DNA of 64,000 nucleotides, from assembly GCA_031200235.1 (NCBI GenBank), contig CP133595.1, forward strand, positions 1,386,877 to 1,450,876. The letters run 5' to 3'. Both the position numbers and the translations under genes were made by a program. This stretch comes from Cuniculiplasma divulgatum. Its GTDB lineage: Archaea; Thermoplasmatota; Thermoplasmata; Thermoplasmatales; Thermoplasmataceae. This document shows, one piece after another, positions 2,506-61,307 of this stretch. The notes below the pieces were generated by a model that was not told where the DNA came from, did not search any database, and saw only the letters and a program-made list of their open reading frames with translations. The stretch's first letter is position 1; the number at the start of each line of letters is the position of its first letter.

Positions 2506-6694
<4,189 letters not shown>

Positions 6695-7195: not shown

Positions 7196-7334
7196 CGAAA
7201 CAGAATTTCACACCTGCACTCATGGGGGTGTCCGGAACCCCTCGCCATGATTTTCCGGCACGGGAATGGTATGGTTTTCTTTTGCCGGAACAGTTAATGG
7301 ATTTATTCAGCATGGTTTTTGATAATTACGCAGG

Positions 7335-7865
7335 TCAGAGGCCGTCAATCAGGGAACATGCGTGAAAAGCCAGCGGATAAAGATAGTACTCTTCCATACT
7401 GGAATGCCTCTCCATGAATGTGGACAGGTTTTCAAGCACCAGCTGTACAGTCCCCTCTTCCCTTTCCATTTCGCCAAGGATATCCTTGATTTTACGGTGC
7501 TCCCTTAACATAACTGGTTCCTCGGTCCTGAACTCATCTGCTTTTGCCTTGAGGAAATCAATGTCCGGTAGGTTCTCGTGGGCGGTGAAGGCCCTGAAGA
7601 ATCCCAGCACGGGAACCATGGTTTCCTCCTCCCTGTCAGCATGCCCTGAAAATATTGATGTGACTTCCTTCAGTGGGCCAAGGTTCAGAGGGCTCTCCTG
7701 CGTGGCCGTGAAGAGCAGCGTGAGAAGCTGGCTGTGCTCCAGCGTAACCGGTTCATCCATGGTGTCACCATGCCTGTCAGGTAATTTAACATATGTGGGT
7801 GGAAAAGCCCACTCTAACAGAACATGGGATGAAGGCCAGTGAAACTTTCTCATATCTCCCAGCAA
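7335..7865 (-). CDS. hemerythrin-like (HHE cation-binding) domain protein
   Basis: 176 aa with spaced H/E pairs (LEHSQL, GHADREEE, LREHRKIKD, MERHSSMEEY) typical of hemerythrin-like four-helix bundles. The start could be the internal ATG at 7853. Confidence 0.5.
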   Translation of the reverse strand: MLGDMRKFHWPSSHVLLEWAFPPTYVKLPDRHGDTMDEPVTLEHSQLLTLLFTATQESPLNLGPLKEVTSIFSGHADREEETMVPVLGFFRAFTAHENLPDIDFLKAKADEFRTEEPVMLREHRKIKDILGEMEREEGTVQLVLENLSTFMERHSSMEEYYLYPLAFHACSLIDGL

Positions 7866-27652: not shown

Positions 27653-28421
27653 ATGAAAAGAATTGCCGCATACCTCATTGAGGGGATATTCGCTGTTGCT
27701 GCTGCCCTGATTCTGGCAATCATCTTCCTTCAGGATTTCAGGTTCTTCGTCATGCCTGAATCATTTGTTGTGAAGCTTTATATTTATTCCTTCCTGGGAC
27801 TCATAATTGCCATTGTTCTTATAATTGCTGCAGGAAGGATAAGGGATGTGTCTGATGTTCAGGAAAAAGGAATCTATGGTTATATAAGGGTCTCTTTTGG
27901 ATTTCTCTGGATCATAGATGGTGTCCTGCAGATACAGCCAGAGATGTCATTCGGCTTTGTTTCATTCGTCATAAATCCGGTAGTTTCCCAGTCACCGTCA
28001 CTCATCGGGCAGTTACTCAGGCCTGCAATTGAATTATGGCTGTCCCATCCGGTCTTTCTTGATGCCCTCTCTGGAGTGGCCCAGATATTCATAGGGATGG
28101 GGATTCTAATCTACAGACAGGGCAAGCATCTCAGGATATTTCTCTGGATATCCCTCTTGTGGTCGCTGTATCTCTGGATTCTGGGAGAGGCCTTCGGGGG
28201 AATATTCATTAAAGGCGCCTCCTACCTGACTGGATTTCCGGGGTCTGCATTCATATATGCAATAATATCCATCCTCATGATATCATATTCTGACACAGGG
28301 GCTCTCAAAAGGGATATCGCTGCCTTCATGGCAGGTCTCTTTGCAATTTCGACTGCCCTTCAGGCCATTCCGCAATATGGATTCTGGAGAGCCGAGAATC
28401 TCTTCAACATTCCATCTTCAC
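27653..28421 (+). pseudogene. polytopic membrane protein gene, 5' fragment interrupted by a TnpB element
   Basis: The hydrophobic ORF runs into the element. Joining 28421 to 29616 gives ...NIPSS-L-VINQQPLIL... in frame (1116 nt, 371 codons plus stop). Confidence 0.8.
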
Positions 28422-28429
28422 GATCTCCA

Positions 28430-28473
28430 GTCGCAAGGAAGCCCACCTCTTCAGATGTGGGAGGAATTGCGAC
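28430..28473 (+). repeat. left-end subterminal hairpin
   Basis: GTCGCAA-ggaag-CCCACCTC-ttca-GATGTGGG-aggaa-TTGCGAC: 7-bp outer stem plus an 8-bp inner stem with one mismatch. Identical in copy 2 (53828..53871). Confidence 0.7.
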
Positions 28474-28477
28474 ACTC

Positions 28478-28498
28478 TTATATATTGAGTGTATATAT
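28478..28498 (+). promoter_or_regulatory. TATA box region of tnpB
   Basis: ttatatattgagtgtatatat, about 25 nt upstream of GTG 28506, suggesting a leaderless transcript. Confidence 0.5.
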
Positions 28499-28505
28499 CA
28501 ATATT

Positions 28506-29576
28506 GTGCTCAAGACCCTTCAGATAAAGCTGCTTCCCCATGATGAACAGCAGGGAGCATTGGTTGATACCTTCATCAAATTCAACAGTGCCTGCAACTT
28601 TGTTTCCAGGATAGCGTTTGAAGGGAAGCTGTATAACAAGGTTATTCTCCAGAAAATCACGTACAGGGACATCAGGGAGAGGTTCGGTCTTGCTGCACAG
28701 CTTGCCATCAGGGTCATAGCAAAGGTTGTTGAAACCTATAAGGCTGATAGGACATCTTTCCATGAGTTCAGGGATTTTGGTTCCATTGTATATGATCAGA
28801 GGATACTGAGCTTCAAGGGTGTTGATGAGGTGAGCATCAGTACCACCAGTGGAAGGGTAAGAGTACCCATAACCATTGGAAAATATGGTGATATACCTTT
28901 TGAAAGGATCAGGGGTCAGTGTGATCTCATCAGGAAGAACAAAATGTTCTACCTCATGGTTGCCGTTGAAGTTCCTGAAGAACCCATCATCAAACCGAAT
29001 GACACCATGGGAGTTGACATGGGCATCGTGAATATTGCGGTGGATTCTACCGGGAAGTACTATTCCGGTGATGAGATCAATGAGGTCAGGGAACACAATG
29101 CTGATCTCCGTTCCCGTCTCCAGTCTGTAGGGACCAAATCCGCAAAACGCCATCTGAAGAAACTCTCCGGAAAGGAGGGCAGGTTCGCCAGAACCACCAA
29201 CCACATAATATCTGAAGAGATCGTTCAGAAAGCCAAAGGCACCTCTTCTGCCATTGCCATTGAAAACCTCAGTGGCATAAGAATGAGGACAACCGTTAGG
29301 AAAGGCAACAGGTACATCCATAATTCGTGGGCTTTCAACCAGCTCCGGTCGTTCATTGAATACAGGGCAAGGGAAGCAGGAATCCCTGTCATTGTTGTGG
29401 ACCCACACAACACCAGCAGGGAATGTCCCCATTGCCATGCCATAAGCAGGAAGAACAGGCTGGAACAATCCAGGTTCAGATGTATTTCCTGTGGGTTTGA
29501 GGGAGAAGCGGATTTCATCGCCTCCCTCAACATCAGGAACAGGGCTGCTGTCAGCCAGCCTATTGTAGCCTCATAA
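28506..29576 (+). CDS. tnpB: TnpB (RuvC-like RNA-guided nuclease, IS200/IS605 accessory protein)
   Basis: The N-terminus LKTLQIKLLP..EQQGALVDTFIKFNSACNFV is typical. RuvC residues in GVDMGI, IAIENL, EADFIASLNI. Zinc finger CPHCH..CISCG. GTG start is preferred over ATG 28455, which lies inside the left-end hairpin and upstream of the TATA. Confidence 0.9.
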   Translation: MLKTLQIKLLPHDEQQGALVDTFIKFNSACNFVSRIAFEGKLYNKVILQKITYRDIRERFGLAAQLAIRVIAKVVETYKADRTSFHEFRDFGSIVYDQRILSFKGVDEVSISTTSGRVRVPITIGKYGDIPFERIRGQCDLIRKNKMFYLMVAVEVPEEPIIKPNDTMGVDMGIVNIAVDSTGKYYSGDEINEVREHNADLRSRLQSVGTKSAKRHLKKLSGKEGRFARTTNHIISEEIVQKAKGTSSAIAIENLSGIRMRTTVRKGNRYIHNSWAFNQLRSFIEYRAREAGIPVIVVDPHNTSRECPHCHAISRKNRLEQSRFRCISCGFEGEADFIASLNIRNRAAVSQPIVAS

Positions 29577-29631
29577 GAGTTACAAGCCAGCATGCTTTAG
29601 CAGTTGGTAGTTGACTTGTGATCAATCAACA
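29499..29631 (+). ncRNA. candidate omega-RNA (scaffold overlapping the tnpB 3' end, plus flanking guide)
   Basis: Three consecutive stem-loops: GAGGGAG..GCG/CGC..CTCCCTC (29499-29528), GGCTG-ctgt-CAGCC (29543-29556), CCAGC-a-TGC-ttta-GCA-GTTGG (29587-29607). The 5' boundary and guide length are assumed, not observed. Confidence 0.45.
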
Positions 29632-29962
29632 ACCCCTGATTCTGTCAGAATGGCTGCGTGCCATTTCTCTCAGCTTTTATTACCATCATATTGTGTGGAA
29701 TTTGGTATTTGTGGTAGTCATGGCGGTCACAGCAGTTCTATGGGTTGTAAGACCAAAGATTTCCGCCTTGCTGACAATCGCATTTTCTCTGTTTGTGTGG
29801 TTTGTTGGTCAGGACTTCGGAGTTCTTGGAGGGTACGGCACGGATCCCAATACGGCTTTACCTGTAATATTACTTGCATTCGTGTTTCTATTGCACGAAA
29901 GGATCTATGTTAGAAATGATATTCTACAATTCGATTCTGGCAGGGCAGACCAGCATATCTGA
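29616..29962 (+). pseudogene. polytopic membrane protein gene, 3' fragment
   Basis: The hydrophobic frame (VINQQPLILSEWLRAISLSFYYHHIVWNLVFVVVMAV...) continues the 27653 frame once the element is removed. Confidence 0.8.
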
Positions 29963-53123: not shown

Positions 53124-53768
53124 TTGAACACTCTGCCCATTGGGGTTGTTAAGCAGAAGAATTCGCTATACACAGTTTCACGAAGCAATAGGCCTGTTTA
53201 TGGAGAAAAGATCAGAAAGATTGAAGTGGGGTATCTTCGTGAGTGGAACCCAAAAAGGAGTAAGCTGGCGGCAGCCATAGTGAAGCGTATCACAACTGTT
53301 CCTCTGAGGCAGAATTCCAATGTGCTGTATCTCGGTGCAGCGTCAGGAACAACGGTCAGCCACATCTCGGACATATGCAGCAGCGGAAGAGTGTATGCCA
53401 TTGAGAAAGCCTACGATCCTTTTGTTCAGCTTCTCGATCTTTCACAGCAGAGGGACAATATATACCCAATAATCGAGGATGCCGGGCAGGTCGATCGTTT
53501 CAGGTTTTTCATTGATCGGGTGGACATGATATACCAGGACATTGCCCAGCGCAACCAGGTCCAGATATTCAACAGCAATGCAGCAGCATTTACAGATGCC
53601 AAAGATGCCCTGCTTGTCCTGAAGATAAGGGCAATTTCAAGCAAAGGGCATGAGAGGGACATACTGCAGGAGGCAACTTCAAGGATTGAGGGTTTCAGGG
53701 TGCTGGAAACGGTGGATCTGTCGCCATTTTCAAAATCAAATTACATGTTAAGGCTCAAGAGGCTGTGA
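53124..53768 (+). CDS. flpA: fibrillarin-like rRNA/tRNA 2'-O-methyltransferase
   Basis: 214 aa. VYGEKI, LREWNPKRSKLAAAI, SAM motif VLYLGAASGTTVSHISD. TTG start; there is no in-frame ATG near the N-terminus. Confidence 0.9.
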   Translation: MNTLPIGVVKQKNSLYTVSRSNRPVYGEKIRKIEVGYLREWNPKRSKLAAAIVKRITTVPLRQNSNVLYLGAASGTTVSHISDICSSGRVYAIEKAYDPFVQLLDLSQQRDNIYPIIEDAGQVDRFRFFIDRVDMIYQDIAQRNQVQIFNSNAAAFTDAKDALLVLKIRAISSKGHERDILQEATSRIEGFRVLETVDLSPFSKSNYMLRLKRL

Positions 53769-53819
53769 CCAGCCATTGCCAGAATTATCCCGGCAATCCG
53801 GCTTGGAAATGGTATTCAC

Positions 53820-55013
53820 GATCTCCAGTCGCAAGGAAGCCCACCTCTTCAGATGTGGGAGGAATTGCGACACTCTTATATATTGAGTGTATATATCAAT
53901 ATTGTGCTTAAGACCCTTCAGATAAAACTGCTTCCCGATGATAAACAGCAGGGAGCATTGGTTGATACCTTCATCAAATTCAACAGTGCCTGCAACTTTG
54001 TTTCCAGGATAGCGTTTGAAGGGAAACTGTATAACAAGGTTATTCTCCAGAAAATCACGTACAGGGACATCAGGGAGAGGTTCGGTCTTGCTGCACAGCT
54101 TGCCATCAGGGTCATAGCAAAGGTTGTTGAAACCTATAAGGCTGATAAGACGTCTTTCCATGAGTTCAGGGATTTTGGTTCCATTGTATATGATCAGAGG
54201 ATACTGAGCTTCAAGGGTGTTGATGAGGTGAGCATCAGTACTACCAGTGGAAGGGTAAGAGTACCCATAACCATTGGAAAATATGGTGAAATACCTTTTG
54301 AAAGGATCAGGGGTCAGTGTGATCTCATAAGGAAAAACAAAATGTTCTACCTCATGGTTGCCGTTGAAGTTCCTGAAGAACCCATCATCAAACCGAAGGA
54401 CATCATGGGAGTTGACATGGGCATCGTCAATATTGCGGTGGATTCTACCGGGAAGTACTATTCCGGTGATGAGATCAATGAGGTCAGGGAACACAATGCT
54501 GATCTCCGTTCCAGGCTGCAATCTGTGGAGACCAAATCCGCAAAACGCCATCTGAAGAAACTCTCCGGAAAGGAGGGCAGGTTCGCCAGAACCACCAACC
54601 ACATAATATCTAAAGAGATCGTTCAGAAAGCCAAAGGCACCTCTTCTGCGATTGCCATTGAAAACCTCAGTGGCATAAGAATGAGGACAACCGTTAGGAA
54701 AGGCAACAGGTACATCCATAATTCGTGGGCTTTCAACCAGCTCCGGTCGTTCATTGAATACAGGGCAAGGGAAGCAGGAATCCCTGTCATTGTTGTGGAC
54801 CCACACAACACCAGCAGGGAATGTCCCCATTGCCATGCCATAAGCAGGAAGAACAGGCTGGAACAATCCAGGTTCAAATGTATTTCCTGTGGGTTTGAGG
54901 GAGAAGCGGATTTCATCGCCTCCCTCAACATCAGGAACAGGGCTGCTGTCAGCCAGCCTATTGTAGCCTGATAAGAGTTACAAGCCAACATGCTTTAGCA
55001 GTTGGTAGTTGAC
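53820..55013 (+). mobile_element. TnpB-only IS200/IS605-type element, copy 2 (1194 bp)
   Basis: Same ends as copy 1, preceded by TTCAC (53815-53819). Intergenic between flpA and a methyltransferase gene. Confidence 0.9.
53904..54971 (+). CDS. tnpB: TnpB (RuvC-like RNA-guided nuclease)
   Basis: 355 aa with nine substitutions relative to copy 1, and a stop one codon earlier. RuvC and zinc-finger residues are intact. Confidence 0.9.
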   Translation: MLKTLQIKLLPDDKQQGALVDTFIKFNSACNFVSRIAFEGKLYNKVILQKITYRDIRERFGLAAQLAIRVIAKVVETYKADKTSFHEFRDFGSIVYDQRILSFKGVDEVSISTTSGRVRVPITIGKYGEIPFERIRGQCDLIRKNKMFYLMVAVEVPEEPIIKPKDIMGVDMGIVNIAVDSTGKYYSGDEINEVREHNADLRSRLQSVETKSAKRHLKKLSGKEGRFARTTNHIISKEIVQKAKGTSSAIAIENLSGIRMRTTVRKGNRYIHNSWAFNQLRSFIEYRAREAGIPVIVVDPHNTSRECPHCHAISRKNRLEQSRFKCISCGFEGEADFIASLNIRNRAAVSQPIVA

Positions 55014-55029
55014 CATCGAATAAGATGTC
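54897..55029 (+). ncRNA. candidate omega-RNA of copy 2
   Basis: Same three stem-loops as copy 1. The terminal stem has A at 54988 pairing with T 55002, where copy 1 has a G:T wobble. The presumed guide would run into the start of the downstream gene. Confidence 0.45.
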
Positions 55030-55777
55030 CGATTTCAGGGAATTCTTTTCAGTAAATGCCCGGGAATATTCAAAGAGCAAATCCCACAGCCAGGGATCCG
55101 ACCTGGTTGTCCTGATGAATATGCTTCAACCGAGGCCGGATATGAATTGCCTGGACATGGCTCCAGGAACAGGCTTCACAGCCATGGAACTTGCCAGAAA
55201 GTGTGGCAAGGTCACTGCCGTTGATGCAACTGAAGAGATGCTTTCTGAGGTAGTCAAGAATGCAACAGAGGCCGGATATACCGGAATTGAGTTTATGGAA
55301 AGAATGGTGGAAAGCACCGGGCTTGAATCAGGGTTATATGATGTAGTAACATGCAGGAGGGCAGCCCACCATTTCTCTGATAAAGGAGCCTTCCTGTGGG
55401 AAGTGATGCGTGTCCTGAAACCCGGCGGCAAACTGGGGCTTGTGGATATGGTGGTGCCTGAGGCAGATAATTCAGACCTACTCAACAGAATTGAAAGGAT
55501 AAGGGGTCCCTCCCATGTCGGTGCCGAAAAAATTTCAAACTGGATACATTTTGTTTCAGCGGCAGGATTCAGGATCATTGAGACCAGGGAAACTCAGGAG
55601 GAATACAGCGTGGAAGCATGGATGGCGCCAGCGTCGACCAGCGGGGAAGCTTTCAAACAGGTGAAGCAGGTCCTCGAAACTGCCACCGGAGACGATCTGA
55701 AGGGTGCTGGAATCAGTTCAGACAGAAAAAAGATAAACAAGCACAGGATGATTTTGATAGCTGAAAAGCCAAGTTAA
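55025..55777 (+). CDS. class I SAM-dependent methyltransferase
   Basis: 250 aa. CLDMAPGTGFTAMELA, LKPGGKLGLVD. Confidence 0.8.
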   Translation: MSDFREFFSVNAREYSKSKSHSQGSDLVVLMNMLQPRPDMNCLDMAPGTGFTAMELARKCGKVTAVDATEEMLSEVVKNATEAGYTGIEFMERMVESTGLESGLYDVVTCRRAAHHFSDKGAFLWEVMRVLKPGGKLGLVDMVVPEADNSDLLNRIERIRGPSHVGAEKISNWIHFVSAAGFRIIETRETQEEYSVEAWMAPASTSGEAFKQVKQVLETATGDDLKGAGISSDRKKINKHRMILIAEKPS

Positions 55778-60240: not shown

Positions 60241-61307
60241 TCATGATTGCAGGTTTCTTCATCAATCCCATAGCAGGATGTGGTGCCATGCACGGGATGA
60301 AGGGATCGGATTACATGAAGATGAGTGAATGCAGGGAATCAGTGTCTCTCGCCCTTGCTGTGGAATTCCTGAGAAGAATCAACCCTGAAAACATCACTTT
60401 TTTCATACCCTCAGGAGATATGGGTGAAAAGGCATTCACTATTACAGGCCTTGATAACTACAGGACTATCTATGATCCGGCTGAACCTTCAACTTCAATG
60501 GACACAAAGAAATTTATTGAAATACTCTCCAAGAGATCTCCTGGCATCCTTGTCTTTTTTGGTGGAGACGGGACTGCAAGGGACATTGTGGATGCGCATC
60601 CTACATTTCCAGTAATTGGTGTCCCGGCAGGTTCAAAGATGTACAGTTCTGTTTTTGCCATCAGCCTGGACTCTGCTGTCAGGGTCTTTAATGATGTCGC
60701 ATCCGGAATGGTGGAAGATTTTGTACCATCAGAGGTCATAGATCTTGATGAAAGAGTCTATTCCACAGGCAGGATAGAGACAAGGTTTTACGGAGAACTT
60801 CTGGTGCCAAACAGCAGCAGGATACTTATGGAATCAAAGGCGGAATATACAGATGATTATGTTCAGGACGCCGCGGAATACATTCATGATCACATTGAAA
60901 ATGATGTTGATTACCTCATAGGTCCGGGTACAACATGCAAGAGCGTTCTGGCACTTTTCGGTCAGAAGGGGAGCATTCTTGGGTTCGATCTGTTCAGAAA
61001 TGGCAGAATCATGGAAACCAGCATGAATGAGGCGAGACTGTACGAGATAGCCAGCAGCAGTACAAGGATGATCATTTCTCCCATTGGAGGGCAGGGCTTT
61101 TTGCTTGGCAGAGGAAACAGAGAAATTTCGCCCAGGGTACTGAAAAAGATCGATCCACGCAACATAACTGTTATAGCATCCCCGAGGAAACTTGAAAACC
61201 TTAAAGTTCTCTACATCGATACTGGTGGCGAAAAAATCGACTTTCCACAATATGTCAGAGTGTTATATGGATATGGCAAATTTAAGATGGTTAAAGTGGA
61301 ACAATAA
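60237..61307 (+). CDS. ATP-NAD kinase-like family protein (COG3199-like)
   Basis: MIMIAGFFINPIAGCG, FGGDGTARDI. ATGA overlap with the upstream gene. Confidence 0.7.
   Translation: MIMIAGFFINPIAGCGAMHGMKGSDYMKMSECRESVSLALAVEFLRRINPENITFFIPSGDMGEKAFTITGLDNYRTIYDPAEPSTSMDTKKFIEILSKRSPGILVFFGGDGTARDIVDAHPTFPVIGVPAGSKMYSSVFAISLDSAVRVFNDVASGMVEDFVPSEVIDLDERVYSTGRIETRFYGELLVPNSSRILMESKAEYTDDYVQDAAEYIHDHIENDVDYLIGPGTTCKSVLALFGQKGSILGFDLFRNGRIMETSMNEARLYEIASSSTRMIISPIGGQGFLLGRGNREISPRVLKKIDPRNITVIASPRKLENLKVLYIDTGGEKIDFPQYVRVLYGYGKFKMVKVEQ

Follow-up and report, generated by a model that had tools for sequence, protein, structure and literature searches.

We analysed a stretch of 64,000 nucleotides of the archaeon Cuniculiplasma divulgatum (assembly GCA_031200235.1, contig CP133595.1, positions 1,386,877 to 1,450,876 of the forward strand), here called the window, which carries two copies of a mobile element with a single gene, tnpB. 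All positions below are those of the window unless another contig is named. The window has a G+C content of 46.8%, and TTCAC occurs 187 times in it when both strands are counted. In an ungapped comparison at an offset of 25398, we observed that 28417-29615 and 53815-55013 are colinear over 1199 bp, with exactly 25 mismatches (97.9% identity) and no insertions or deletions. An earlier interpretation made from the letters only, which we call the sequence-only reading, had counted at least about 25. In both copies, the shared stretch starts with TTCAC (28417-28421 and 53815-53819) and finishes with GTTGAC (ending at 29615 and 55013). The flanks of the two copies are unrelated, and identity collapses at the first base outside 28417 and 29615. 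Motifs of the left end and the right end are present at just these two places in the window. Furthermore, a repeat finder detected no inverted repeats across the window, and there is no target duplication, as the empty copy-1 sites are simple joins. The comparison of the copies thus agrees with what the sequence-only reading had proposed for the start, the end, the unrelated outer flanks and the lack of terminal inverted repeats and duplications. The features are listed in Table 1.

Table 1. Features of the two element copies and of their insertion sites. Positions are those of the window; the slash in the empty site marks the insertion point; TAM, target-adjacent motif; aa, amino acids.
Feature	Position	Strand	Evidence or remark
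Membrane-protein gene split by copy 1	27653..29962 (27653-28421 + 29616-29962)	+	Spliced product of 371 aa, colinear with intact orthologues
Target and predicted TAM TTCAC, copy 1	28417..28421	+	Host DNA; present in the empty site CCATCTTCAC/TTGTGATC of metagenome contigs and genomes L055/L056
Copy 1, 1194-bp IS1341-type (TnpB-only) IS200/IS605 element	28422..29615	+	Exact 1194-bp skip in contigs of runs X8, X15 and X18
Left-end hairpin: 7-bp outer stem GTCGCAA/TTGCGAC, purine loop GGAAG/AGGAA, inner 8-bp stem, TTCA loop	28430..28473	+	DNA fold
A/T-rich TATA-like boxes, 8-28 nt upstream of the GTG	28478..28498	+	Read from the sequence
tnpB copy 1, 356 aa, GTG start, TAA stop	28506..29576	+	Pfam, NCBIfam, PDB alignment
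Predicted ωRNA scaffold overlapping the tnpB 3' end	29475..29615	+	Fold and covariation; 5' limit approximate
Right-end hairpin CCAGCATGC-TTTA-GCAGTTGG	29587..29607	+	Stem covaries in relatives
Right-end terminal motif TTGAC (transposon-encoded motif, predicted right TnpA cleavage site)	29611..29615	+	Ends of relatives
Predicted guide of the copy-1 ωRNA (TTGTGATCAATCAACAACCC)	29616..29635	+	Expected from TnpB biology
Target and predicted TAM TTCAC, copy 2	53815..53819	+	Present in empty alleles L030-L033
Copy 2, element between the fibrillarin and methyltransferase genes	53820..55013	+	Four empty assemblies; filled junction in L028/L029
tnpB copy 2, 355 aa, TGA stop one codon before that of copy 1	53904..54971	+	Pfam, NCBIfam, copy comparison
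Predicted guide of the copy-2 ωRNA (CATCGAATAAGATGTCCGAT)	55014..55033	+	Starts at the junction of the 42-bp loss, 55013/55014

Copy 1 interrupts a gene for a membrane protein. Excising 28422-29615 fuses the open reading frame (ORF) that starts at 27653 and the ORF at 29618-29962 into one frame of 371 aa, and intact orthologues, each of 371 aa, are encoded in three related Thermoplasmata metagenome-assembled genomes (MAGs; L056, L057 and L058). The protein contains no Pfam domain. The orthologous genes read CCATCTTCAC/TTGTAATCAATC at the insertion point (a TTCAC/TTGT site), and the uninterrupted site CATCTTCAC/TTGTGATC is found in mine-drainage metagenome contigs as well as in related Thermoplasmata genomes. 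In assembled contigs of three mine-drainage or tailings runs (X8, X15 and X18), 28419 is joined to 29614, which skips 1194 bp; the skip can be placed with a 2-nt ambiguity (AC) because TTCAC and TTGAC share this ending. In run X18, where the element-free sequence TTCAC+TTGTGATCAATC occurs, depth is equal on the joined contig and on the flanks; in run X1, only the filled form was observed at the copy-1 site. Copy 1 thus inactivates a conserved gene for a membrane protein, and natural populations in mine drainage differ in whether they carry this insertion.

The site of copy 2 is empty in four NCBI assemblies (L030-L033) that encode an identical fibrillarin protein, and the filled right junction is reproduced by two independent assemblies (L028/L029). 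The assembly GCA_000447225.1, which encodes the identical fibrillarin protein, is the one that we take to be 'A-plasma'. The empty alleles read TTCAC + TGACGTGTTGAGAATAACCAGTATTTTTATCTTATTACTCGC + CATCGAATAAGATG, and the filled allele reads TTCAC + element + CATCGAATAAGATG. Because the empty alleles of both sites hold TTCAC and nothing is duplicated, TTCAC is target DNA that lies outside the element, and the element comprises 28422-29615 and 53820-55013. The insertion 3' of a short target, which the sequence-only reading had recognised as typical of IS200/IS605 elements, is thus directly visible at the empty sites of both copies.

The two ends of the element have distinct structures. At the left end, a linker of 8 nt is followed by a hairpin of 44 nt, and the two window copies do not differ at all in their first 89 nt, which comprise the linker, the hairpin and the promoter region. 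Using the pattern GTCGCAAGGAAGC-N12-26-GGAATTGCGAC, we detected related left ends at 46 loci, 25 in species-representative genomes and 21 in metagenomes. Their hosts are mostly Thermoplasmata, together with Thermoproteota, Methanohalobium, Aenigmatarchaeota, Micrarchaeota, Nitrososphaerota, Methanomethylicaceae and one cyanobacterial MAG. All 35 distinct left-end variants among these loci keep the fold, including the symmetric purine loop and an apical loop of TTYA type, and the inner stem covaries. Immediately after the left-end hairpin, relatives carry 'CTTATATAT', and the TATA-like boxes at this place may be an archaeal promoter from which a leaderless mRNA of tnpB starts. The right-end hairpin has a stem of 8-9 bp, with AAG before it and TAG after it, and lies 3 nt upstream of TTGAC. 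Its stem is CTCC..GGAG in L043 and CCCCAT..GTGGGG in L017, to give two examples of covariation. The sole difference between the window copies in this hairpin (G/A at 29590, one of two differences in the 3' non-coding part) keeps the base pair as G-U or A-U. Complete relatives all terminate with TTGAC or CTGAC (YTGAC), and unrelated DNA follows. A left cleavage site upstream of the left hairpin and a right cleavage site downstream of the right hairpin is the arrangement of IS608.

Each copy contains one long sense ORF, and tnpB alone has a family match in the 1194 bp (the antisense ORF was not scanned). Both TnpB ORFs pass the Pfam thresholds (Cas12f1-like_TNB at 7e-20, and OrfB_IS605) and match the NCBIfam family of RNA-guided TnpB endonucleases, NF040570, with 168 and 172 bits over residues 8-346 (cut-off 100). 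The match to NCBIfam Cas12f2 is partial, and its 144-146 bits are far below the cut-off of 450. The closest solved structures are those of Cas12f (E 1e-22 to 4e-20, over the half with RuvC and the zinc ribbon); the match to ISDra2 TnpB is weak (E 8e-5). When aligned to solved Cas12f and TnpB structures, the RuvC residues D/E/D are supplied by GVDMG, AIAIENL and EADFIASLNI, and the zinc ribbon by CPHC...CISC (CxxC..CxxC), so that the retention of both features in the two tnpB genes, as read earlier, holds in these alignments. An exact-protein look-up of three start variants of TnpB and of AlaRS returned no record.

The window copies differ at 23 coding positions, 13 of them synonymous and 10 non-synonymous, and the latter result in nine residue changes. 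The ratio of non-synonymous to synonymous substitution rates (dN/dS, Nei-Gojobori), whose calculation the sequence-only reading had suggested, is 0.21 between the window copies and 0.18-0.32 among three copies when a further one (L054, below) is included. By this sequence comparison, tnpB is intact and under purifying selection. The description of the substitutions as mostly synonymous or conservative is only roughly true, because 10 of them are non-synonymous and only three of the nine residue changes are K/R or D/E.

Two observations were made beside these. ORFs of 354 aa (28404-29468) and 372 aa (53748-54866) run antisense through tnpB on the minus strand; they are probably a by-product, or shadow, of the tnpB sense frame. 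In addition, an E-plasma relative (L001/L013, scaffold KI542675.1) is a decayed copy, as an internal deletion of ~170 bp has removed TnpB residues ~253-308; its left TTCAC and its right TTGAC are nevertheless preserved.

The 3' part of the element is likely to encode a structured RNA. The last 141 nt have a minimum free energy of -52.7 kcal/mol (z = -4.1), and a consensus fold of eight relatives contains 48 pairs, eight of which show compensatory changes. According to these models, the 141 nt form a conserved and covarying ωRNA-like structure. At gathering thresholds, Rfam detected three tRNAs in the window and had no match within the element. In relatives, tnpB reads on to a stop codon that belongs to the terminal TTGAC (its TGA), and an extra hairpin GGGTG...CACCC is present. 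Compared with L001, L009 and L034, ~31 nt are replaced by 9 nt in the window subfamily (29566-29585 and 54964-54983), which trims the apex of this extra hairpin while keeping its base TTGTAGC/GTTACAA and ends the protein 22 residues earlier. The shortened form is evidently still mobile, because it is common to three copies at different sites.

The third of these copies is complete and comes from an acid-mine-drainage metagenome contig (L054). It is 98.7% identical and has different flanks (to the left GTATG before the TCAC, to the right TTCTGTCTCC), and the pairwise differences among the three copies number 13-25. Loose contig ends add at least two further left flanks (GAACTCC and AAGTTTA, each before TTCAC) and one further right flank. 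A narrower comparison at the ends of the element stopped precisely at its boundary and yielded no additional right flanks. In run X1, the depth of the element is ~4x that of the flanks. The presence/absence polymorphism among mine-drainage populations and this excess depth support recent activity of the element, as the sequence-only reading had assumed.

Two short stretches, 54915-54965 (the C-terminal part of tnpB and the ωRNA core) and 53845-53870 (the left-end hairpin), are covered 10-40x more deeply in mine-drainage metagenomes than the remainder of the element, a sign that these communities contain a large and diverged family of related elements. Furthermore, the 2273-bp contig JBMFTY010000036.1 (L002/L021) has the 3' portion of an element at its start and the 5' portion of one at its end, which suggests that two copies lie ~1.8 kb from each other or that the assembly broke within repeats.

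The same ends are also found without tnpB. A sister-species Thermoplasmata MAG (YF2.bin89) carries mini-elements of 277 and 324 bp (L003 ~67-343 and L010 ~7235-7558), whose left ~60 nt are 95% identical to those of the window element, whose right ~33 nt are the same, and which are flanked by TTCAC or ATCAC. In place of tnpB they have a strongly structured, non-coding interior of ~180-230 nt, which has no Rfam match at E<=1, and the junction from the left end to this interior recurs in the mine-drainage runs X8, X18 and X33. Because the mini-elements have the same ends, these ends appear to be moved by a factor that is supplied in trans. In a Methanohalobium MAG (L015 and L027, the first ~1400 nt downstream of the hairpin), the left-end hairpin with NTCAC abuts the 3' end of an iscB gene on the opposite strand, whose product has RRXRR and HNH domains. 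This orientation is as expected if the guide of IscB also comes from the right-end side. A TnpB of 446 aa with a helix-turn-helix domain lies likewise on the opposite strand at locus L022.

We then compared the target sites among the related elements. At 41 of the 44 distinct left junctions (the two of the window included), TCAC lies 5-9 nt upstream of the hairpin, the three exceptions are each one base off, and positions further upstream are unconserved. At position -5, T is found 23 times, A 10 times, G 4 times and C 4 times. Further copies thus carry the motif at the left junction, with GTCAC at L054 and TTCAC at the loose contig ends, and the near-identical pentamers that had been noted at the two ends, TTCAC and TTGAC, can be refined to NTCAC and YTGAC. 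In experimentally studied systems, the TAM equals the target of TnpA, and the right-end motif is not cleaved, which protects the occupied site (PMC11043419; bioRxiv 10.1101/2023.03.14.532601). Because of the 41 of 44 junctions and the right ends of relatives, we predict that the TAM is 5'-TTCAC with the core TCAC and a preferred T at -5 (NTCAC), and that the right-end motif YTGAC is one base apart from it. The TAM that the sequence-only reading had proposed by analogy is thus predicted from analogy and comparative evidence together.

It is unlikely that the copies are real insertion sequences with another TAM than TTCAC: the four nucleotides TCAC alone might suffice, the motif might have drifted, or the nuclease might be inactive due to its shortened C-terminus or ωRNA. 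Such a view can draw on the variable -5 position, which is dispensable for a Sulfolobus TnpB (PMC11043419), and on the loss of the ωRNA hairpin and the C-terminal tail in the window subfamily. However, the TAM is the TnpA target in every characterised system, the dN/dS is 0.21, the catalytic residues are intact, and the loss in the hairpin is apical with the base of the stem kept.

The boundaries, the target motif, the lack of duplication, the population polymorphism, the intact and selected tnpB and the conserved structured RNA region at the 3' end are established by these observations. We conclude that each copy is very probably a non-autonomous IS200/IS605 insertion sequence of the IS1341 (TnpB-only) type in a Thermoplasmatales archaeon of acid mine drainage. 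From left to right, it consists of the linker behind the host TTCAC, the left hairpin, the TATA-like promoter, the leaderless tnpB, the ωRNA scaffold, the right hairpin and TTGAC. For its life cycle, we infer the identity of the transposase, the expression and processing of the ωRNA and the TAM-dependent cleavage. A Y1 (HUH) TnpA from elsewhere would bind both subterminal hairpins on single-stranded DNA and cut 3' of the two pentamers, TTCAC at the left end and TTGAC at the right end. The released circular single strand would be reinserted 3' of another (T/N)TCAC without duplication. The transcript of the element would be processed to an ωRNA, whose 3' end would extend into the right flank as the guide. 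TnpB with this ωRNA might then cleave the element-free allele, that is, TTCAC followed by the former right flank, and repair of the break from the copy that holds the element would favour its retention and spread. The occupied site would be spared, as the guide sequence is there preceded by TTGAC and not by TTCAC.

Several findings weigh against this interpretation, first of all those on the transposase. Our hidden Markov model (HMM) of Y1 TnpA was built from four sequences with solved structures (PDB chains) and recovered TnpA in 80 of 80 control loci. It detected no Y1 TnpA in the six-frame translation of the 64-kb window, which agrees with the earlier statement that neither copy nor the rest of the window contains tnpA, and none in the fetched DNA of the 46 left-end loci, whose whole genomes were not searched. 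A search of a genome collection with a Sulfolobus TnpA as query gave 80 loci, of which none has shared ends or a close TnpB, and a Thermoplasmatales-type tnpA, that of Thermogymnomonas, is without a counterpart at >=80% identity in four mine-drainage runs. The search for a tnpA donor, as proposed by the sequence-only reading, thus found none in the 46 related loci or the four runs. Secondly, the window subfamily has no ~31-nt apical ωRNA hairpin and no 22-aa C-terminal tail, and because of these losses the competence of the nuclease or ωRNA is not guaranteed. Thirdly, the RNA data, in the form of assembled contigs, show presence only, with a depth ratio like that of DNA runs. Lastly, copy 2 is not a clean insertion, because the filled allele lacks the 42 bp immediately to the right of the element (L030 3697-3738).

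With no Y1 tnpA found in the window or in the DNA fetched around the 46 related left ends, mobilisation would take place in trans by a Y1 TnpA that is encoded elsewhere. This would not be unusual, as ~75% of tnpB genes have no tnpA nearby (bioRxiv 10.1101/2023.03.14.532601), and elements with TnpB alone are known to move, with a transposase that probably acts in trans (PMC10691335). The alternative that the left-end hairpin serves another mover, either an unrecognised transposase or copying that depends on TnpB and ωRNA, would explain why 0 of the 46 loci and no part of the window yielded a tnpA with an HMM that performed so well on the controls, and the left-end hairpin is conserved over several archaeal phyla. 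We nevertheless consider it highly improbable. The anatomy is exactly that of IS200/IS605, with subterminal hairpins, cleavage 3' of a pentamer and neither inverted repeats nor duplication, and the frequency of solo tnpB genes in general makes a missing neighbour little surprising. Furthermore, the mini-elements without TnpB have the same ends and distinct flanks, so that TnpB is not needed in cis. Guide-directed copying as the source of new copies was rejected, since the right flanks of the copies are unrelated.

A related idea is that the whole family of ends, that is, the TnpB elements, the mini-elements without TnpB and the iscB elements of Methanohalobium, may spread in genomes that have no cognate Y1 TnpA at all. 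We regard this as very doubtful. If it were true, IS1341-type elements would be moved by an unrecognised transposase or by copying that depends on nuclease and ωRNA, and the 42-bp loss at copy 2 would be a trace left by that route or by self-targeting through the near-cognate TTGAC. That the copies stem from a segmental duplication or an assembly artefact, which would require nothing beyond the bare repeat in the assembled sequence, can be dismissed: the flanks are unrelated from the first outside base, independent assemblies and runs show the filled and the empty junctions alike, further copies lie at other sites, and the empty-site alleles already refute it.

Turning to the 42-bp loss itself, its left edge coincides with the last base of the element with an ambiguity of 1 nt (55013/55014), and its right edge lies 3' of CTCGC, which has one mismatch to NTCAC. 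The lost sequence opened with TGAC, the same four bases as the end of the element, and contained the TATA-like TTTTTATC upstream of the methyltransferase start. The insertion of copy 2 appears to have removed the probable promoter region of the neighbouring methyltransferase gene. A filled allele that retains the 42 bp would read GGTAGTTGAC+TGACGTGTTGAG, and an empty allele without them TTCAC+CATCGAATAAG; no allele with both the element and the 42 bp was found among the alleles compared. The loss can possibly be explained by mis-cleavage of the transposase at a pseudo-site, by self-targeting of TnpB via the near-cognate TTGAC followed by end joining, or by an unrelated earlier deletion.

When comparing the element to known systems, we find that it is an ordinary member of a very common and known TnpB family; what is new is this member, its ends, the 42-bp loss and the mini-elements. 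With the IS1341 group it shares the single tnpB ORF, subterminal hairpins, insertion 3' of a pentamer without inverted repeats or target duplication, a region of predicted RNA structure where tnpB ends, and multiple polymorphic copies. Archaeal elements of this group carry 3' sense-overlapping RNAs (PMC4615843). Its own features within the group are the target NTCAC, the right end YTGAC, the purine-loop hairpin GGAAG/AGGAA and the short protein of 355-356 aa. ISDra2 of Deinococcus radiodurans (PDB 8EXA, 8H1J) and the TnpB of Sulfolobus islandicus (PMC11043419) are alike in the family NF040570, the RuvC residues D/E/D and the zinc ribbon. They are also alike in a logic that is predicted here, namely a TAM that equals the target, a guide from the right flank and a right-end motif that differs from the TAM. 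However, their TAMs are TTGAT and TTTAA, compared to the predicted TTCAC here, and their elements carry tnpA, whereas the window elements do not. The pentamer TTCAC, here the target, is in S. islandicus the motif of the right end and is not cleaved. The IS605-family elements of Geobacillus stearothermophilus (Meers et al., bioRxiv 10.1101/2023.03.14.532601) have in common the concept of a TAM and a transposon-encoded motif, non-autonomous elements with tnpB or iscB for which TnpA acts in trans, and a TnpA that at times uses alternative boundaries. They differ in that TTCAC is the right-end motif, the host is a bacterium and the function has been demonstrated experimentally. Cas12f (type V-F) nucleases provide the best structural matches over the half with RuvC and the zinc ribbon (PDB 9NZQ, 8J12, 7WJU). 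In contrast to these, the Cas12f2 score of the window proteins is below the cut-off (144-146 versus 450 bits), there is no repeat array in the window, and the gene lies inside a mobile element bounded by transposon ends; the window TnpB is thus not a member of Cas12f.

The current understanding of the family is unchanged by these results, and the locus illustrates the general question of who mobilises solo-tnpB elements. With the exact ends, the natural empty sites, the NTCAC logo and the two predicted guides, an assay of the TAM and the ωRNA can be designed directly. As this small protein (355 aa) of an acidophile is nearer in sequence to Cas12f than to ISDra2 TnpB, it may be of interest for the mining of compact nucleases.

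Outside the element, the window contains a direct repeat of 47 nt with 70% identity (5182-5228 and 60500-60546), which is most likely a chance match.

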